A model generated the notes under the pieces. The model did no database searches, had not been told where the DNA came from, and worked only from the letters and a program-made list of their open reading frames with translations. 64,000 nucleotides of DNA from Escherichia coli (GTDB lineage Bacteria > Pseudomonadota > Gammaproteobacteria > Enterobacterales > Enterobacteriaceae): assembly GCF_001677475.2 (NCBI RefSeq), contig NZ_CP015229.1. One strand, written 5' to 3'. This document shows, piece after piece, positions 12,270 through 57,065 of this stretch. The position numbers and the translations under genes are program-made. Position 1 is the stretch's first letter. Each line of letters opens with the position of its first letter.

Positions 12270-13262
12270 ATGCGACATAGCGTACTTTTTGCGACAGCGT
12301 TTGCCACGCTTATCTCTACACAAACTTTTGCTGCCGATCTGCCGGGCAAAGGCATTACTGTTAATCCAGTTCAGAGCACCATCACTGAAGAAACCTTCCA
12401 GACGCTGCTGGTCAGTCGTGCGCTGGAGAAATTAGGTTATACCGTCAATAAACCCAGTGAAGTGGATTACAACGTTGGCTACACCTCGCTTGCTTCCGGC
12501 GATGCAACCTTCACCGCCGTGAACTGGACGCCACTCCATGACAACATGTACGAAGCTGCCGGTGGCGATAAGAAATTTTATCGTGAAGGGGTATTTGTTA
12601 ACGGCGCGGCACAGGGTTACCTGATCGATAAGAAAACCGCCGACCAATACAAAATCACCAACATCGCACAACTTAAAGATCCGAAGATCGCCAAACTGTT
12701 CGATACCAACGGCGACGGTAAAGCGGATTTAACCGGCTGTAACCCAGGCTGGGGCTGCGAAGGTGCGATCAACCACCAGCTTGCCGCGTATGAACTGACC
12801 AACACCGTGACGCATAATCAGGGGAACTACGCAGCGATGATGGCCGACACCATCAGTCGCTACAAAGAGGGCAAACCGGTGTTTTATTACACCTGGACGC
12901 CGTACTGGGTGAGTAATGAGCTGAAGCCAGGGAAAGATGTGGTCTGGTTGCAGGTGCCGTTCTCCGCACTGCCGGGCGATAAAAACGCCGATACCAAACT
13001 GCCGAATGGTGCGAATTATGGCTTCCCGGTCAGCACCATGCATATCGTTGCCAACAAAGCCTGGGCCGAGAAAAACCCGGCAGCAGCGAAACTGTTTGCC
13101 ATTATGCAGTTGCCAGTGGCAGATATTAACGCCCAGAACGCCATTATGCATGACGGCAAAGCCTCAGAAGGCGATATTCAGGGCCATGTTGATGGTTGGA
13201 TCAAAGCCCACCAGCAGCAGTTCGATGGCTGGGTGAATGAGGCGCTGGCAGCGCAGAAGTAA
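12270..13262 (+). CDS. proX: Glycine betaine-binding periplasmic protein ProX
   Basis: ORF 12228..13262; recognised start [11 protein letters not shown] with signal peptide at internal Met. Confidence 0.88.
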
Positions 13263-13267
13263 TTTTT

Positions 13268-13352
13268 ATTCGGGCGGATAAGGCGTTTTTGCCTCATCCG
13301 CCGTTCTGTGCACAATGCCTGATGCGACGCTGGCGCGTCTTATCATGCCTAC
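13268..13352. repeat. REP/BIME-type palindromic repeats downstream of proX
   Basis: Two palindromic units incl. gcctgatgcgacgctggcgcgtcttatcatgcctaca. Confidence 0.6.
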
Positions 13353-13453
13353 AAACCACATCGCACATTTCAACAATCTATCTTTCATCCCATATTCATC
13401 AACATCCGCTATTATTGATTTCCAGCTTAATCATCACCTGATGAACAAAAATA

Positions 13454-14638
13454 ATGACTAAACCTAATCATGAGCTTAGCCCGGCGCTGATCGTGCTGAT
13501 GTCTATCGCCACCGGTCTGGCGGTAGCCAGTAACTATTACGCCCAGCCGTTGCTCGACACCATCGCGCGTAACTTTTCCCTTTCCGCCAGTTCGGCAGGC
13601 TTTATTGTTACCGCCGCGCAGTTGGGCTATGCCGCAGGTCTACTGTTTCTTGTTCCCCTCGGTGATATGTTTGAACGCCGCCGCCTGATTGTCTCGATGA
13701 CCTTACTGGCAGCGGGCGGTATGTTAATCACTGCCAGCAGTCAGTCACTGGCGATGATGATCCTCGGTACGGCATTAACCGGTTTATTCTCAGTCGTGGC
13801 ACAAATTCTGGTTCCGCTGGCAGCGACGCTGGCTTCACCGGACAAACGCGGCAAAGTGGTCGGCACCATTATGAGCGGGCTGCTGTTGGGGATCTTGCTG
13901 GCACGAACCGTTGCCGGGTTGCTGGCAAACCTCGGCGGCTGGCGCACCGTCTTTTGGGTTGCCTCGGTGTTAATGGCACTGATGGCGCTGGCATTATGGC
14001 GTGGTCTGCCACAAATGAAATCAGAAACCCACCTCAACTACCCACAGTTGCTTGGTTCCGTTTTCAGCATGTTTATCAGCGATAAGATCCTGCGCACCCG
14101 CGCGTTGCTGGGCTGCCTGACCTTTGCCAACTTCAGCATTCTCTGGACCTCAATGGCCTTTTTGCTTGCCGCTCCACCTTTTAACTACAGCGATGGTGTA
14201 ATTGGTCTGTTTGGACTTGCGGGAGCTGCCGGAGCGTTGGGCGCTCGTCCGGCGGGCGGTTTTGCCGACAAGGGCAAATCGCACCACACAACAACTTTCG
14301 GTCTGCTGCTGCTGTTACTTTCATGGCTGGCAATCTGGTTTGGTCACACTTCCGTACTGGCGCTGATTATCGGCATTCTGGTGCTGGACCTCACCGTGCA
14401 GGGCGTGCATATCACTAACCAGACGGTAATTTATCGAATACACCCTGATGCGCGTAATCGCCTGACCGCAGGTTACATGACCAGCTACTTTATTGGCGGT
14501 GCCGCCGGTTCGCTAATTTCAGCCTCAGCCTGGCAACATGGCGGTTGGGCTGGCGTTTGTCTGGCTGGCGCGACGATTGCCCTGGTTAACTTACTGGTCT
14601 GGTGGCGAGGTTTTCATCGTCAGGAAGCCGCAAATTAA
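13454..14638 (+). CDS. ygaY: MFS transporter YgaY (uninterrupted 394 codons here)
   Basis: 394-aa ORF with MFS-like hydrophobic pattern; synteny between proX and ygaZ. Confidence 0.8.
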   Translation: MTKPNHELSPALIVLMSIATGLAVASNYYAQPLLDTIARNFSLSASSAGFIVTAAQLGYAAGLLFLVPLGDMFERRRLIVSMTLLAAGGMLITASSQSLAMMILGTALTGLFSVVAQILVPLAATLASPDKRGKVVGTIMSGLLLGILLARTVAGLLANLGGWRTVFWVASVLMALMALALWRGLPQMKSETHLNYPQLLGSVFSMFISDKILRTRALLGCLTFANFSILWTSMAFLLAAPPFNYSDGVIGLFGLAGAAGALGARPAGGFADKGKSHHTTTFGLLLLLLSWLAIWFGHTSVLALIIGILVLDLTVQGVHITNQTVIYRIHPDARNRLTAGYMTSYFIGGAAGSLISASAWQHGGWAGVCLAGATIALVNLLVWWRGFHRQEAAN

Positions 14639-14761
14639 GCAATCAGCAACCGTTTTCGTGGCTTTACACTTATAAGGGTGTTAAGAAGCCCATCAGTCTG
14701 ATAAGGTTAAGATATTCATTCAGTCTATTTATAATATTAACAATCGTTAAGCGTACACTCT

Positions 14762-15499
14762 ATGGAAAGCCCTACTCCACAGCCTGCTCCTGGTTCGGCG
14801 ACCTTCATGGAAGGATGCAAAGACAGTTTACCGATTGTTATTAGTTATATTCCGGTGGCCTTTGCGTTCGGTCTGAATGCGACCCGTCTGGGATTCTCTC
14901 CTCTCGAAAGCGTTTTTTTCTCCTGCATCATTTATGCAGGCGCGAGCCAGTTCGTCATTACCGCGATGCTGGCAGCCGGGAGTAGTTTGTGGGTTGCTGC
15001 ACTGACCGTCATGGCAATGGATGTTCGCCATGTGTTGTATGGCCCGTCACTGCGTAGCCGTATTATTCAGCGTCTGCAAAAATCGAAAACCGCCCTGTGG
15101 GCGTTTGGCCTGACGGATGAGGTTTTTGCCGCCGCAACCGCAAAACTGGTACGCAATAATCGCCGCTGGAGCGAGAACTGGATGATCGGCATTGCCTTCA
15201 GTTCATGGTCATCGTGGGTATTTGGTACGGTAATAGGGGCATTCTCCGGCAGCGGCTTGCTGCAAGGTTATCCCGCCGTTGAAGCTGCATTAGGTTTTAT
15301 GCTTCCGGCACTCTTTATGAGTTTCCTGCTCGCCTCTTTCCAGCGCAAACAATCTCTTTGCGTTACCGCAGCGTTAGTTGGTGCCCTTGCAGGCGTAACG
15401 CTATTTTCTATTCCCGTCGCCATTCTGGCAGGCATTGTCTGTGGCTGCCTCACTGCGTTAATCCAGGCATTCTGGCAAGGAGCGCCCGATGAGCTATGA
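14762..15499 (+). CDS. ygaZ: AzlC-family branched-chain amino acid exporter subunit YgaZ
   Basis: 245-aa hydrophobic ORF; synteny. Confidence 0.85.
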
Positions 15500-15824
15500 G
15501 GTTCTGCTGCTTGGGTTACTGGTTGGCGCGGCGAATTATTGCTTCCGCTATTTGCCGCTGCGCCTGCGTGTGGGTAATGCCCGCCCAACCAAACGTGGCG
15601 CGGTAGGTATTTTGCTCGACACCATTGGCATCGCCTCGATATGCGCTCTGCTGGTTGTCTCTACCGCACCAGAAGTGATGCACGATACACGCCGTTTCGT
15701 GCCCACGCTGGTCGGCTTCGCGGTACTGGGTGCCAGTTTCTATAAAACACGCAGCATTATCATCCCAACACTGCTTAGTGCGCTGGCCTATGGGCTCGCC
15801 TGGAAAGTGATGGCGATTATATAA
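15489..15824 (+). CDS. ygaH: AzlD-family exporter small subunit YgaH
   Basis: 111-aa hydrophobic ORF overlapping the ygaZ 3' end. Confidence 0.85.
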
Positions 15825-19556: not shown

Positions 19557-20264
19557 ATGAATACCCAACGAAAATACGGGAGAACCTGGCATTACCCTTT
19601 CTCCCCAGGCACCACCAGCGATGACCGTATTAACACCGATTACTGGCAGGATTTACAGGCCATCACGCAATTGGTGCACACAGAAAAACTCGACGGTGAA
19701 AATAACTGCCTTAACCGCTACGGCGTGTTTGCCCGTTCCCATGCCGCGCCTACGCAGTCGGCATGGACCTATAAAATTCGCCAACGCTGGCAACTGCTGA
19801 AAAACGATCTCGGCGATCTGGAGTTGTTTGGTGAAAATCTTTATGCCGTCCATTCGATTGAATATCGCGCCCTGGAGCAGGATTTTTATCTGTTTGCCGT
19901 TCGCTGCCAGGATATGTGGCTGAGCTGGGAAGAGGTGCAGTTTTACGCCGCTCTGTTTGATTTCCCCTGCGTTCCCGAAATCTCCGGCCCGCAGCCGGGG
20001 AATGATGAAAAAAGCTGGCAACGTGATTTTCTGGCGCTGACCAATGCGCGCGGCGCGTTCGATCCCTGGGATACGCAAACCGGGCAACCCTGTACGCTGG
20101 AAGGCATTGTCAGCCGAAATCGTGACGCGTTTTCCGTCGCTGACTTTTCGCATAACGTCTTCAAGTATGTGCGCAAAAATCATGTCAAAACCACCGTGCA
20201 CTGGAAACGACACTGGCAACGGGCGCGGATGGCCCATGAGTTCGCTTATGGAGAACAGTCATGA
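19557..20264 (+). CDS. Minimal ATP-dependent polynucleotide ligase (lysine nucleotidyltransferase family, RNA-ligase-like)
   Basis: 235-aa ORF; motif I K44-L-D-G47, motif III-like F91-G-E-N, motif IV E182-G-I-V, motif V K203-Y-V-R-K207 in canonical order. Confidence 0.7.
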
Positions 20265-21373
20265 TTTGGCAGCTTACCGACGACAAACGCTGGTCGACGC
20301 TACGCCAGCGTTTCAGTTGGGTTGAGGAGATGCATCACACGCCACAAGACCCGGAGCATCATGGTGAAGGTGACGTCGGCGTGCATACGGAAATGGTGCT
20401 TAACGCCCTCGTTACTCAGCCAGAATTCCAGCAACTCCCCGCTCAACAGCAGGAAGTTTTATGGGCGGCGGCGTTATTGCATGATGTTGAAAAGCGCAGC
20501 ACTACCGTGCAGGAAAACGGACGTATTCAGTCTCCAGGCCATGCTCGTCGGGGCGAACTGACGGCCCGACAAATTTTATGGCGCGATATCCCAACGCCGT
20601 TCGTGCTACGCGAGCAAATTGTTGCGCTGGTGCGTCTGCATGGGTTACCGCTATGGTTACTGGAACGTCCGGAACCGGAGCGTTTGCTGCTCACGGCTGC
20701 AATGCGCATCGACACGCGTCTGCTCGCTTTGCTTGCTCGTGCCGACCTGCTTGGTCGCCAAAGCCCGGATCAGCAATCAATGCTGGAACGCATCGATCTG
20801 TTCGAGCTGTTTTGCCATGAGCAACAATGCTGGGGAAAAGTGCGCCCGTTCGTTTCTGATTCCGCACGCTGGCACTACCTGACTCATGAGCAAAGTTCTC
20901 CTGATTTTGTTCCCTGGGGGGCTGAACCTTTTGAGGTTATTTTGCTGTGTGGCTTACCGGGTATGGGCAAAGATCGCTATATCAGTGAACAGTGCCAGGG
21001 AATGGACGTTATCAGCCTTGATGATATGCGGCGGCGAATCAATGCCAGCCCGGACGACAAAACCGCCACCGGGCGTATTGTGCAACAGGCAAAAGAAGAG
21101 GCGCGCGTTTTTTTACGCCAGAAAAAGCCGTTCATCTGGAATGCAACGAACATTACCCGCCAGCTGCGTAGCCAGCTCATCAGCTTGTTTACGGCCTACG
21201 GTGCAAGGGTAAAAATTATCTATCTGGAAGTGCCGTGGGCACAATGGAAGCAGCAAAATGCCAGGCGTGTGTATGCAGTTCCTGAAGTGGTCGTAATGCG
21301 GATGGCCTCAAGGCTGGAAGTTCCTCAACCTGATGAAGCACATAGCGTGGAGTATCGGGTGATTGAAAGGTAA
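20261..21373 (+). CDS. HD-domain phosphoesterase fused to a T4-Pnk-like 5'-OH polynucleotide kinase (HD-Pnk end-healing enzyme)
   Basis: 370-aa ORF; N-terminal HD signature ([11 protein letters not shown] ... LLHDVEK); C-terminal P-loop GLPGMGKD then [24 protein letters not shown] and [16 protein letters not shown], matching T4 Pnk as recalled; start overlaps the ligase stop (ATGA). Confidence 0.7.
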
Positions 21374-22005: not shown

Positions 22006-22079
22006 GAAAGACGCGCATTTGTTATCATCATCCCTGAATTCAGAGATGAAATTTTGGCCACTCACGAGTGGCCTTTTTC
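22006..22079 (+). ncRNA. micA: MicA (SraD) small regulatory RNA
   Basis: Recognised sequence gaaagacgcgcatttgttatcatcatccctgaattcagagatgaaattttggccactcacgagtggcctttttc with terminal hairpin; between luxS and gshA on the opposite strand. Confidence 0.75.
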
Positions 22080-26418: not shown

Positions 26419-29049
26419 TTATTGCAATTTCGCGCTGACCCAGCCTTTCACACTGGCTAACGCTGCAGGTAAGGCCGCAGCATCCGTACCACCGGCTTGC
26501 GCCATGTCAGGACGTCCACCACCCTTGCCGCCCACCTGCTGAGCGACCACACCAATCAGTTCCCCTGCTTTCACACGATCTGTGACGTCCTTAGATACGC
26601 CTGCAATCAGAGAAACCTTACCTTCGACTACCGTTGCCAGCACGATAATTGTCGACCCCAGCTGATTTTTTAAATCGTCAACCATGGTACGCAACATTTT
26701 CGGCTCAACACCGCTAAGCTCGCTAACCAACAGCTTAACACCATTAACATCAATTGCCTTACTGGAAAGATTTGCGCTCTCCTGTGCGGCAGCTTGTTCT
26801 TTAAGCTGTTGTAACTCTTTTTCCAGCTGACGCGTACGTTCCAGTACTGAGCGCACTTTATCAGCCAGATTATTGCTATCGCCTTTCAGCAGATGCGCGA
26901 CTTCGCTTAAGCGATCGCTGTCTGCATGAACGGTCGCGATAGCGCCTTCTCCGGTTACCGCTTCGATACGACGAACGCCTGCAGCAGTACCCGATTCAGA
27001 GATGATGCGGAACAGACCAATATCACCAGTGCGACTGGCGTGAGTACCGCCACACAGCTCGGTGGAGAAATCGCCCATGCTCAGCACGCGTACGCGCTCA
27101 TCATACTTCTCACCAAACAGCGCCATCGCACCTTTCGCTTTCGCCGCTTCGAGATCCATGATGTTGGTTTCGATCGGCAAGTTACGGCGAATCTGTGCGT
27201 TCACCAGGTCTTCGACCGCACGAATCTCTTCTGGTTTCATCGCTTCGTTGTGTGAGAAGTCGAAGCGCAGCACTTTGTCGTTAACCAGTGAACCTTTCTG
27301 CGATACATGAGTACCCAGAACCTGGCGCAGCGCAGCGTGCATCAGGTGCGTTGCGGAGTGATTCAGACGAATACGGGCGCGAAGAGCCTCATCAACATCA
27401 GCCTGCACCGCGTCGCCCACTTTCAGAGAACCCGCAGCAAGTTTACCGATGTGACCAATCGCCTGGCCGTATTTCTGCGTATCTTCCACCGCAAAGGAGA
27501 AGTTAGCGCCTTTCAGTTCGCCTTTATCACCAACCTGACCGCCGGATTCCGCATAGAATGGCGTTTGATCCAGCACGACCACAGCTTCCTGGCCTGCATT
27601 GATGGCATCAACCGCTTTACCATCAACAAACAGCGCGGTCACTTTGCCGTTCAGTTCCAGATGGTCATAGCCTTTAAATTCAGATGCGCTGTCAACACGG
27701 ATCATTGCGTTGTAATCGGCACCAAAGCCGCTGGCTTCGCGCGCGCGACGACGCTGCTCTTCCATTGCTGCTTCGAAACCAGCTTCGTCAACTTTGATGT
27801 TGCGCTCACGACAAACATCAGCCGTCAGGTCAACCGGGAAGCCATAGGTGTCGTACAGACGGAAAGCCGTTTCACCATCCAGCGTATCACCAGAAAGTTT
27901 TGCCAGCTCTTCATCCAGCAGCGCCAGACCGCGCTCCAGAGTACGGGCAAACTGCTCTTCTTCAGTCTTCAGCACCTGCTCAACCTGCGCCTGCTGGCGT
28001 TTCAGGTCTTCACCCGCAGAGCCCATTACGTCGATCAGCGGACCAACCAGTTTGTAGAAGAAGGTTTCTTTCGCGCCCAGCATATTGCCGTGACGCACTG
28101 CGCGACGAATGATACGACGCAGTACATAACCACGGTTTTCATTGGACGGCATTACGCCATCCGCGATCAGGAACGCACAAGAACGAATGTGGTCAGCGAT
28201 TACGCGCAGCGATTTATTGCTCAGATCGGTCGCGCCAGTGACTTTCGCTACCGCCTGGATCAGCGTGCGGAACAGGTCGATGTCATAGTTAGAGTTAACG
28301 TGTTGCAGCACCGCAGCAATACGCTCCAGACCCATACCGGTATCTACAGACGGCTTCGGCAGCGGTTCCATCGTGCCATCTGCCTGGCGGTTGAACTGCA
28401 TGAAGACGATGTTCCAGATCTCAATGTAGCGATCGCCGTCTTCTTCCGGACTTCCCGGAGGGCCACCCCAAATGTGGTCGCCGTGATCGTAGAAGATTTC
28501 GGTGCACGGGCCGCACGGACCAGTGTCACCCATCTGCCAGAAGTTGTCAGATGCGTATGGCGCACCTTTGTTATCGCCGATGCGAATAATACGTTCGCGC
28601 GGGATCCCTACTTCTTTTTCCCAGATTTCGTAGGCTTCGTCGTCGCTTTCATAGACGGTAACCCACAGACGCTCTTTCGGCAGGGCAAACCATTTTTCAC
28701 TGGTCAGCAGTTCCCATGCAAACTGAATGGCATCGTGTTTGAAATAGTCGCCGAAGCTGAAGTTGCCCAGCATTTCGAAGAAGGTATGGTGACGCGCGGT
28801 GTAACCGACGTTTTCCAGGTCGTTGTGTTTACCACCCGCACGCACGCAGCGTTGGGAAGTGGTAGCGCGGGAATAATTACGCTTGTCGAGCCCAAGGAAC
28901 ACATCCTTGAACTGGTTCATCCCGGCGTTGGTAAACAACAAAGTTGGGTCGTTATGGGGTACCAGGGAGCTGCTGGCAACTACCTGATGTCCCTTACTAT
29001 GGAAAAAGTCGAGAAACGCCTGACGGATCTCAGCGGTGCTCTTGCTCAT
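26419..29049 (-). CDS. alaS: Alanine--tRNA ligase AlaS
   Basis: 876-aa ORF; recognised N-terminus [24 protein letters not shown]. Confidence 0.95.
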
Positions 29050-55238: not shown

Positions 55239-57065
55239 TCAGGCTCCTCGTGAAACAATAATCACCACCAGTACCGCCAGTTCAACCAGCGCCATCCGGC
55301 GGAACAGCAACGCACTCCCCTCGCACTGCCAGCCCGGTACCAGCGACACCGGATTCAGCCATTTGCGCAGTTTCAGCACCGGCGCAAACGCCTGTTTCAC
55401 CGGCATGGCAAAACCGTGAGCAGTAATCACCATTGATTTTTCATGGTCGTAGCCGCACACCCAGGCCGCGCCGCGGGAACGCGACGGCAAACGATCGCCT
55501 TTGCAAATCGCCATAATGATGAATGGCAGCAGCGGGCAGGCAATCAGCAGCAACGTGATCATGGGTTGAGAAACGGTGGTGTTAGCAGGCTCCAGCGGCA
55601 GAGGTACAGCAGCAGAGAGCATCGGCAGCAGCCACGGCGCAGCAACACCGCCAATTACGCAGCAAATCGCCAGTGCCACAACGCTTACGCTCATCAGGAG
55701 CGGCGCACTGGTGGCGTTTTCGGCTTCTTTGGTACGCGGCGCGCCGAGGAACGTGACGCCATAGACTTTCGCCATACACATCACTGCCAGCGCACCGGTA
55801 ATTGCCAGCCCCACAGCGAGCAGCGGCCCCAGCAGACGGGCAACAAACGCGCCACTATTGCTCAGTTTGAAGAAGGATTGATAGATAACCCATTCACCGG
55901 CAAAACCGTTCAACGGCGGCAGCGCAGCCATTGCCATCAGCCCGACTAACATAGCGATGGAGATAACCGGCATTTTCTTGCCAATACCACCGAGTTTTTC
56001 GATATCGCGATGACCGGTACGGAACCAGACGCTCCCCGCCCCGAGGAACAGTACGCTTTTGAACAGGCTATGGTTAAGCAGATGGTACAGGCCACCGACC
56101 AGGCCAAGAGCAATCAGCGCCGGTTGTTCGAGCGCGATACCCGTTACGCCAGCCCCCAGCCCCAGCAGGATGATGCCGATATTTTCCAGTGTGTGGTAAG
56201 CCAGCAGACGCTGGATGTTGTGCTCCATCAGCGCATACAAACCACCGACGAACGCGGTGATCATGCCGAGCACCAGCAGCGCAATTCCCCACCACAGCGG
56301 CGCGTTACCGCCCAGCAGAGACAGGGTTAAAATGCCCAGCAGGCCGATTTTCATTACCACCGTGGAAAACAGCGCGGCAGCTGGCGCAGAGGCGTTAGCA
56401 TGTGCCTGCGGCACCCAGCCGTGCAGCGGAATAATCCCGGCCAGCAGGCCAAAGCCAATCACACCGAGCAGCCAGATATCGGAACCGAGCGGCAGCTGTT
56501 GCATACGCATATCCAGCAGGCGCAGATCCAGCGTGCCGTAACGCTGCCACAGCAGCCAGCAAGCAATCGCCAGCAGCAGAGTGCCAAGACGCCCCAGCGC
56601 AAACCACAGTTTGCCCTCTTTGCTGTTGCTGGTGAGGAACACCGCACACAAGGCCATGACTTCGGCCATTACCACGAACATGCCGAGGTTGCTGGCAATG
56701 ACGGCGCAGACGGCGGCAGCCATCAACATATTGATCTGCAAGCCGTTGCACTTCACCTGCGCGTGGCGATGCCAGTCAATGTTGTAGAGGCTGACAAACA
56801 GACCGCACAGACCGAGCGTAATCAGCCAAATCGCGTTAAGCGGAGAAATTTGCACATCGTAGCTTACCAGCGACAGCGCACCGCTCACGCCAACCGCGCC
56901 AGTCAGCACAGTAAAGCCCGCGGCTGCCGTATACAGGCTACCCACCGCGCCGCCAATTCCGGCTATCCAGCCGCTTAGCGCCTTTTGAAAAGAAAAGAGA
57001 AATGCCAGAACAGCGGCGGCGGCAAACCACGCCACGCCGCTATTGATCAGGGAAATTGCGCTCAT
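55239..57065 (-). CDS. hycC: Formate hydrogenlyase membrane subunit HycC (antiporter-like)
   Basis: 608-aa hydrophobic ORF; synteny. Confidence 0.9.
   Translation of the reverse strand: MSAISLINSGVAWFAAAAVLAFLFSFQKALSGWIAGIGGAVGSLYTAAAGFTVLTGAVGVSGALSLVSYDVQISPLNAIWLITLGLCGLFVSLYNIDWHRHAQVKCNGLQINMLMAAAVCAVIASNLGMFVVMAEVMALCAVFLTSNSKEGKLWFALGRLGTLLLAIACWLLWQRYGTLDLRLLDMRMQQLPLGSDIWLLGVIGFGLLAGIIPLHGWVPQAHANASAPAAALFSTVVMKIGLLGILTLSLLGGNAPLWWGIALLVLGMITAFVGGLYALMEHNIQRLLAYHTLENIGIILLGLGAGVTGIALEQPALIALGLVGGLYHLLNHSLFKSVLFLGAGSVWFRTGHRDIEKLGGIGKKMPVISIAMLVGLMAMAALPPLNGFAGEWVIYQSFFKLSNSGAFVARLLGPLLAVGLAITGALAVMCMAKVYGVTFLGAPRTKEAENATSAPLLMSVSVVALAICCVIGGVAAPWLLPMLSAAVPLPLEPANTTVSQPMITLLLIACPLLPFIIMAICKGDRLPSRSRGAAWVCGYDHEKSMVITAHGFAMPVKQAFAPVLKLRKWLNPVSLVPGWQCEGSALLFRRMALVELAVLVVIIVSRGA

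Follow-up and report, generated by a model that had tools for sequence, protein, structure and literature searches.

An intact ygaY transporter gene in a non-K-12 Escherichia coli, and the replication slippage that may explain its loss in K-12

The nearest characterised relative of the MFS protein YgaY, by sequence, is YnfM. TCDB lists YgaY (UniProt P76628) as 2.A.1.36.3, within the YnfM family (PMC5417439). YnfM has been reported to be the glutarate exporter of E. coli BL21(DE3), with export sensitive to CCCP (PMC12622518), and it also promotes the efflux of anthocyanin (PMC12014714). Our search of the searchable literature found no experiment on intact YgaY; in all papers that mention ygaY, the K-12 pseudogene serves as a neutral site or marks a place in the chromatin, and many laboratories use the K-12 locus for neutral integration or as a control site. 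In K-12, an H-NS bridge joins the downstream regulatory element of proU to ygaY, ygaY transcripts are low, and they rise modestly after hyperosmotic shock, which has been ascribed to read-through from proVWX; in a K-12 stpA mutant the ygaY transcript goes up 4- to 11-fold after shock. The gene, its protein sequence, the pseudogene status of the K-12 copy and the family placement are already known from public databases and papers. To this picture, the slippage explanation and the genome census reported here are modest additions.

The window analysed here is a stretch of 64,000 nucleotides from the E. coli contig NZ_CP015229.1. Between proX and ygaZ it contains a single ATG-start ORF of 394 codons without interruption (Table 1), and the same 1185-nt CDS is called by RefSeq annotators in other E. 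coli genomes. The predicted protein matches Pfam MFS_1 (PF07690) over two stretches at 142.2 bits (cut-off 33.4, E=2.6e-41). An identical protein is found on at least 1000 public contigs, where the exact sequence carries the labels 'MFS transporter [Escherichia coli]' and 'Putative uncharacterized transporter YgaY'. The Pfam score, the recurrence of the exact protein on these contigs, a dN/dS of 0.01-0.05 and the AlphaFold2 model described below make this ORF clearly a real gene. An earlier note on this DNA had described an intact, MFS-like frame of 394 codons, and the ORF listing, the Pfam match and the model all agree with that description. By its chromosomal position (proX-ygaY-ygaZ) and its near-identical sequence, the gene belongs to the orthologue group of K-12 b2681, formerly ygaX/ygaY; it is the same gene in the same place, and the window protein is 100% identical to K-12 YgaY once the K-12 frame is restored. 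The earlier note had also set the gene between 'the proU and ygaZH export systems'. The position is correct, but only ygaZH exports, whereas ProU (proVWX) takes up glycine betaine and proline.

Table 1. Features at and around ygaY in the window (positions are those of the window).
Feature	Coordinates	Strand	Basis or remark
proX, upstream neighbour	12270..13262	+	exact protein publicly named ProX; K-12 synteny
proX-ygaY intergenic spacer	13263..13453	+	3' half AT-rich by inspection
REP-derived element, Rfam naRNA4 (RF02564)	13272..13349	+	cmscan, 69.7 bits (gathering score 59.5)
ygaY CDS, intact	13454..14638	+	394 codons and TAA stop; 12-TM MFS transporter
7 bases GGCAGCG, missing in K-12	13708..13714	+	codons 86-88, in TM3 (model helix 75-94)
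Imperfect 7-bp tandem repeat GGCAGCG GGCGGTA, window allele	13708..13721	+	junctions of seven alleles and K-12
Predicted sigma-70 promoter TTAAGA-17-TATAAT, ygaY/ygaZ gap	14707..14735	+	promoter scan, 10/12 matches
ygaZ-ygaH, L-valine exporter genes, downstream	14762..15824	+	ORFs; exact proteins named YgaZ and YgaH; synteny
Two-gene accessory insert between emrB and luxS	19557..21373	+	
MicA sRNA gene	22006..22077	+	Rfam RF00078, 83.9 bits
AlaS gene	26419..29046	-	
Protein-coding gene	55239..57062	-	

The K-12 copy is broken, as the earlier note had stated. In MG1655 (NC_000913.3), ygaY (b2681) is annotated as a pseudogene of 1178 nt, and in a DH5-alpha derivative PGAP labels it 'MFS transporter, frameshifted'. 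Current RefSeq has one tag, b2681, but the older literature wrote the two halves as 'ygaXY' (PMC3946193), which fits the two K-12 locus tags of the earlier note. Aligned globally, the window gene and b2681 differ by a single 7-base indel, the lesion, accompanied by 36 substitutions. Without the 7 bases, the K-12 frame meets a stop at codon 89 and the remaining protein reads on in another frame. All 36 substitutions are synonymous, and K-12 with the 7 bases restored encodes the window protein. Since the K-12 copy carries no amino-acid change beyond the deletion, the lesion is recent, and up to that event the gene was under selection. K-12 ygaY is neither identical to the window copy nor intact, and the contrast that the earlier note drew between the two holds.

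The likely origin of the deletion can be read from the alleles nearest to K-12. In T7Express (B), O103:H2 12009 and the hospital isolate Z226-5, the site reads CT-GGCGGCA-GGCGGCA-TG, and this perfect repeat is the state of A/B1-type alleles; K-12 reads CT-GGCGGCA-TG, with a single copy. Synonymous differences make the repeat imperfect in the window allele. Because the closest intact alleles carry a perfect tandem repeat of which one copy is left in K-12, the comparison points to the loss of one repeat unit by replication slippage: two GGCGGCA units within TM3 have become one in K-12, shifting the frame and leading to the stop at codon 89. Such an origin is a tidy textbook example rather than a discovery. 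As a separate observation, the perfect (GGCGGCA)x2 lies inside ygaY, at codons 86-90, in at least 1503 complete genomes and constitutes a potential slippage hot-spot.

To follow the two states through the species, 5426 complete E. coli genomes, 5413 of which have the ygaY locus, were searched with short junction probes, on which a 28-nt megablast seed cannot form without spanning the junction. The probe for the K-12 form, a 40-mer centred on its junction, matched 353 of the 5426 genomes, all at 100% identity, and all 60 matches listed of these 353 are K-12 laboratory strains or derivatives (MG1655, BW25113, C600, JM109, MC4100, TG1, J53, S17-1, EPI300 and the like). For the intact junction, synonymous polymorphism breaks the 28-nt seed, and the first probe caught only 2145 genomes; two more allele-specific probes were added, which found 1664 and 452. 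The 1664 genomes are those matched by the perfect-repeat probe, at least 1503 of them at 99% identity or more. The four probes together left about 800 of the 5413 locus-bearing genomes unclassified, whose junction variants gave no seed, and ORF integrity was looked at directly in eight genomes, so other lineage-specific lesions are possible. An intact 1185-nt CDS is annotated in T7Express (B), LF82 (B2), O103:H2 12009 (B1), FSIS11705876, Res13 and Z226-5, and the intact-junction probe falls on a feature annotated as 'ygaY: transporter' in O157:H7 Sakai.

A probe for the 7-bp deletion on the non-K-12, perfect-repeat background gave no full-length exact match; the only full-coverage matches were K-12 types, at 92.5%. 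Nor did the probes reveal an independent occurrence of the deletion junction outside K-12 derivatives (60 of the 353 matches listed). From these junctions, the K-12 pseudogene appears to have arisen once, and the lack of a second deletion on the perfect-repeat background outside K-12 is consistent with selection removing such mutants. The earlier note had taken the intact frame as the mark of a non-K-12 lineage. The source is indeed not K-12, as seen from the missing 7-bp deletion, the 36 synonymous differences and the two-gene insert between emrB and luxS, but intactness as such is a poor mark of lineage, being the norm in essentially every non-K-12 E. coli examined.

Beyond E. coli, orthologs of about 394 amino acids are found in E. 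fergusonii and E. marmotae (98% identity), E. albertii (96%) and Citrobacter (93%). The window has the gene order nrdF-proVWX-ygaY-ygaZH-mprA(emrR)-emrAB, which matches K-12 and other E. coli, and Citrobacter has the same order, nrdF-proVWX-ygaY-ygaZH-emrR-emrAB. Nei-Gojobori dN/dS lies between 0.009 and 0.053 among E. coli alleles and is 0.04 against Citrobacter, where dS is about 1.1. Purifying selection on the gene is strong, and each of the non-K-12 genomes inspected has an intact copy. Given the spread of orthologs, the synteny and the low dN/dS, intact ygaY is the ancestral, selected state, to which K-12 is the exception. One homolog, a predicted protein of 596 amino acids on an ENA metagenome contig of 5428 bp, reaches 1092 bits in the comparison with YgaY (73% identity). 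A single copy would give far less; the protein may have arisen by fusion or by partial duplication in tandem, or it may be an artefact of assembly.

A promoter scan found no sigma-70 consensus promoter upstream of ygaY, and the terminator-like hits of the promoter/terminator scan showed no excess over shuffle expectation. In the gap between ygaY and ygaZ, the scan predicts a sigma-70 promoter whose hexamers are those of a constitutive RpoD promoter described between the two genes in K-12 (PMC3946193). This promoter drives ygaZH, which is therefore independent of ygaY transcription; a single operon in which ygaZH relies on ygaY was rejected on account of this separate constitutive promoter. The proX-ygaY spacer holds a naRNA4/REP element directly after proX, and the many dispersed short matches per genome fit the REP-element nature of this segment. 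The spacer also varies in length within E. coli: O103:H2 12009, E6474 and D217-5 have about 100 bp more, and the first ~98 nt of the spacer query are divergent in other E. coli genomes. Going by K-12 data, ygaY is probably expressed at a low level, to which osmotic shock adds some read-through from proVWX. One could go further and tie YgaY to osmotic stress, with read-through from proVWX after hyperosmotic shock supplying a carrier for an osmolyte-related or stress metabolite. The proVWX-ygaY adjacency kept in Escherichia and Citrobacter and the transcript rise in the stpA mutant make this reading compatible with the data, yet we regard it as a long shot. If it were true, K-12, the reference strain of osmoregulation, would miss one component of the wild-type response.

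An exhaustive homolog search of 1.84 billion cluster representatives returned 1144 clusters at E<=1e-30, and 97 full-length homologs at 35-56% identity were aligned for the model and for conservation. The AlphaFold2 model is all-helical, with a mean pLDDT of 95.5 and a pTM of 0.93. From its DSSP string we read 12 transmembrane helices and a cytoplasmic linker helix. The N-terminal half comprises helices 10-40 (kinked), 45-65, 75-94, 99-126, 129-161 and 163-184, followed by the linker at 196-209; the C-terminal half comprises 211-239, 247-272, 276-298, 301-329 and 331-393, the last of which we read as two. With an MFS_1 profile match, twelve helices in two six-helix bundles and motif A, YgaY is a member of the MFS. 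Motif A, in the TM2-TM3 loop, takes the variant form P68-L-G70-D71-M-F-E-R75-R76-R77 (against G-x-x-x-D-R/K-x-G-R-R/K), with P68 conserved in 97/97, G70 in 88/97, D71 in 95/97 and R75 in 80/97 homologs, and a second motif-A-like element, G268-x-x-x-D272-K/R, follows TM8. Inside the helices there is a conserved polar set of Y28/Q31/P32 (TM1), Q56 (TM2), Q117 (TM4) and R151 (TM5, kept in 96/97 homologs), joined by D312/Q316/H319/N322/Q323 in TM10 and by R336. D312, kept in 85/97 homologs, is the sole conserved acidic residue within a TM helix.

When the model was compared with the PDB by Foldseek, the DHA1 drug/metabolite:H+ antiporters SotB (6KKK; TM-score 0.85), MdfA (4ZP0, 6EUQ; 0.83-0.84) and NorA (8TTF; 0.80) came first, over ~380-399 alignment columns, ahead of VMAT, FLVCR and SPNS2. 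These proteins have the same 12-TM, two-domain architecture as the YgaY model but share only 15-18% sequence identity with it. The DHA1 family models do not accept YgaY: TIGR00710 (Bcr/CflA) scores 50.4 against a threshold of 200.9 bits, EmrD 38.1 against 479, and the SotB-type model NF002921 (sugar transporter) 63.8 against a cut-off of 401. Inspection of TM5 for DHA1 motif C (G-x-x-x-G-P-x-x-G-G) did not make it evident; the helix reads G137-T-I-M-S-G142-L-L-L-G146-I-L-L-A-R151, which has the glycine spacing, no G-P and no G-G. The likeness to DHA1 seen in the model is one of fold and probable mechanism, not of family membership. Among NCBIfam models, 25 of the MFS match YgaY, none near its cut-off, and none supplies a specific subfamily name; a sequence search of the PDB returned weak partial hits only (GlcP, 3e-8; SotB, 5e-4).

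Placement in TCDB 2.A.1.36 ('acriflavin-sensitivity') is borne out by full-length homology to YnfM: BLASTP aligns the two proteins end to end over 409 columns at 26% identity (E=2e-20). This homology does not imply a shared substrate. YnfM (2.A.1.36.1) shares with YgaY the 12-TM MFS architecture, the Y-x-x-Q-P of TM1, the aspartate of motif A, an arginine in TM5 and a histidine in TM10, whereas Q56, D312, Q316, N322 and Q323 of the YgaY family are absent from YnfM in the pairwise alignment. Their surroundings differ as well, as ynfM adjoins the divergent LysR-type gene ynfL and ygaY has no such neighbour. The neighbourhoods of distant homologs (50-57% and 46% identity) gave no clue to the substrate, consisting of unrelated genes: ferritin/EamA/MCP, pheA/mutY/old-yellow-enzyme and flagellar genes.

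Taken together, these features allow a mechanism to be proposed. YgaY would be a proton-coupled carrier working by the alternating access of the MFS, and its likeliest task, to judge from its fold and its distant homology, is the export of a small metabolite that may be anionic. The DHA1-like fold, the kinship with YnfM and the conserved, membrane-embedded D312 together with R151 and the polar set support this proposal; D312 in TM10 is a candidate for the site of protonation, and the candidate substrate site would consist of R151 and the cluster of glutamines and asparagines. Export is favoured because the fold is nearest to DHA1 antiporters and the nearest characterised relative, YnfM, exports. 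Both the direction and the coupling ion are inferences from fold and distant homology, and MFS importers and exporters share this fold; we lean towards export. It is unlikely that YgaY simply shares the substrate of YnfM. As a whole, the reading of ygaY as an intact ancestral gene, lost in K-12 by slippage and encoding a putative proton-coupled MFS carrier that is likeliest an exporter, appears to us highly probable.

Several other explanations have to be weighed against this reading. The most serious concerns direction: YgaY could be an importer, a substrate:H+ symporter for an organic acid or another gut nutrient. The MFS fold alone leaves direction unfixed, a sequence search of the PDB puts the glucose/H+ symporter GlcP first (N-terminal half only, E=3e-8), the top NCBIfam model is an aromatic acid/H+ symport subfamily (78 bits, far under its cut-off of 418), and the D-galactonate:H+ symporter is found among the fold hits at rank 37. 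However, these symporter hits span only residues ~20-190, the generic MFS N-domain, while the full-length structural ranking puts the exporters SotB, MdfA and NorA first and efflux is the role of the only members of the TCDB family that have been characterised, represented by YnfM. We consider import possible but unlikely. Even if YgaY exports, it might do so as a redundant paralogue of YnfM, for the same dicarboxylates (glutarate, succinate, 2-oxoglutarate). For this speak the common TCDB family, the full-length homology with R151 conserved in the pairwise alignment, and the export of glutarate by YnfM. Yet in BL21(DE3) glutarate export was no longer detectable once ynfM alone had been deleted (PMC12622518). 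Since ygaY is intact in T7Express, a B strain derived from BL21, YgaY did not take over the export in that setting; moreover, the identity is only 26%, and D312/Q316/N322/Q323 of TM10 align with S/F/A/S in YnfM. Redundancy is accordingly an improbable account, clearly more so than import.

The remaining two explanations question the status of the gene rather than its function. Intact ygaY might be cryptic in wild strains, bound by H-NS, unexpressed and heading to loss, with K-12 the first to lose it. In K-12, ygaY is reported to show an H-NS signal and to take part in a bridge mediated by H-NS, and its transcript levels there are low; no consensus promoter was found upstream. Relaxed selection is, however, incompatible with a dN/dS of 0.01-0.05 in E. 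coli and 0.04 against Citrobacter (at a saturating dS), and the ORF has kept its length across Escherichia and Citrobacter; in addition, the perfect repeat, which is prone to slippage, is present in at least 1503 genomes, and no second deletion was found. A gene on its way out is thus very improbable. Still less credible is that the K-12 form is the original and the 7 bases of the window a secondary insertion, a duplication that restored the long frame. A tandem repeat is gained by duplication as easily as it is lost by deletion, but the 394-aa frame occurs in all other sampled E. coli phylogroups and in E. fergusonii, E. marmotae, E. albertii and Citrobacter, the short form is confined to K-12 derivatives, and the two K-12 halves, in two different frames, translate to a protein identical to that of the window. 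An insertion in the window is refuted by the long form in the outgroups, and we assign this explanation a next to vanishing probability.

Some further observations were made elsewhere in the window. Between emrB and luxS, which in K-12 lie 63 bp apart with no insert, there is a two-gene accessory insert. Its first gene encodes a 235-aa protein of the RNA_ligase family (PF09414), and its second a 370-aa protein with an AAA_33 kinase domain, which weakly resembles the Pnkp kinase and the HD region of the CCA-adding/repair enzyme. The pair looks like an RNA-repair-type cassette of a ligase and a kinase/phosphatase, and PADLOC returned no defence hit on the insert. The MicA sRNA gene is located between luxS and gshA as in K-12. 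Over 25 kb (1-25000), the window reaches at most 98.2% identity to any of the 5426 complete E. coli genomes, and it is 99.98% identical to a contig of the draft assembly GCA_043014985.2. Neither AlaS nor the product of the gene at 55239..57062 has an exact match among about 15 billion proteins. From these comparisons, the window represents a natural, under-represented E. coli lineage, and certainly not K-12.

For the biology of E. coli, the finding is of modest weight and mainly recalls that ygaY is mutant in K-12. Whatever has been learnt in K-12 from knockout collections, phenotype screens or surveys of transporters is uninformative on YgaY, and the use of ygaY as a neutral site is safe only in K-12. 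The purifying selection on the gene (dN/dS about 0.01-0.05) shows that natural Escherichia and Citrobacter draw some benefit from the protein. This makes YgaY an orphan transporter worth de-orphanising, and doing so needs a non-K-12 strain or a K-12 strain in which the 7 bp have been repaired.
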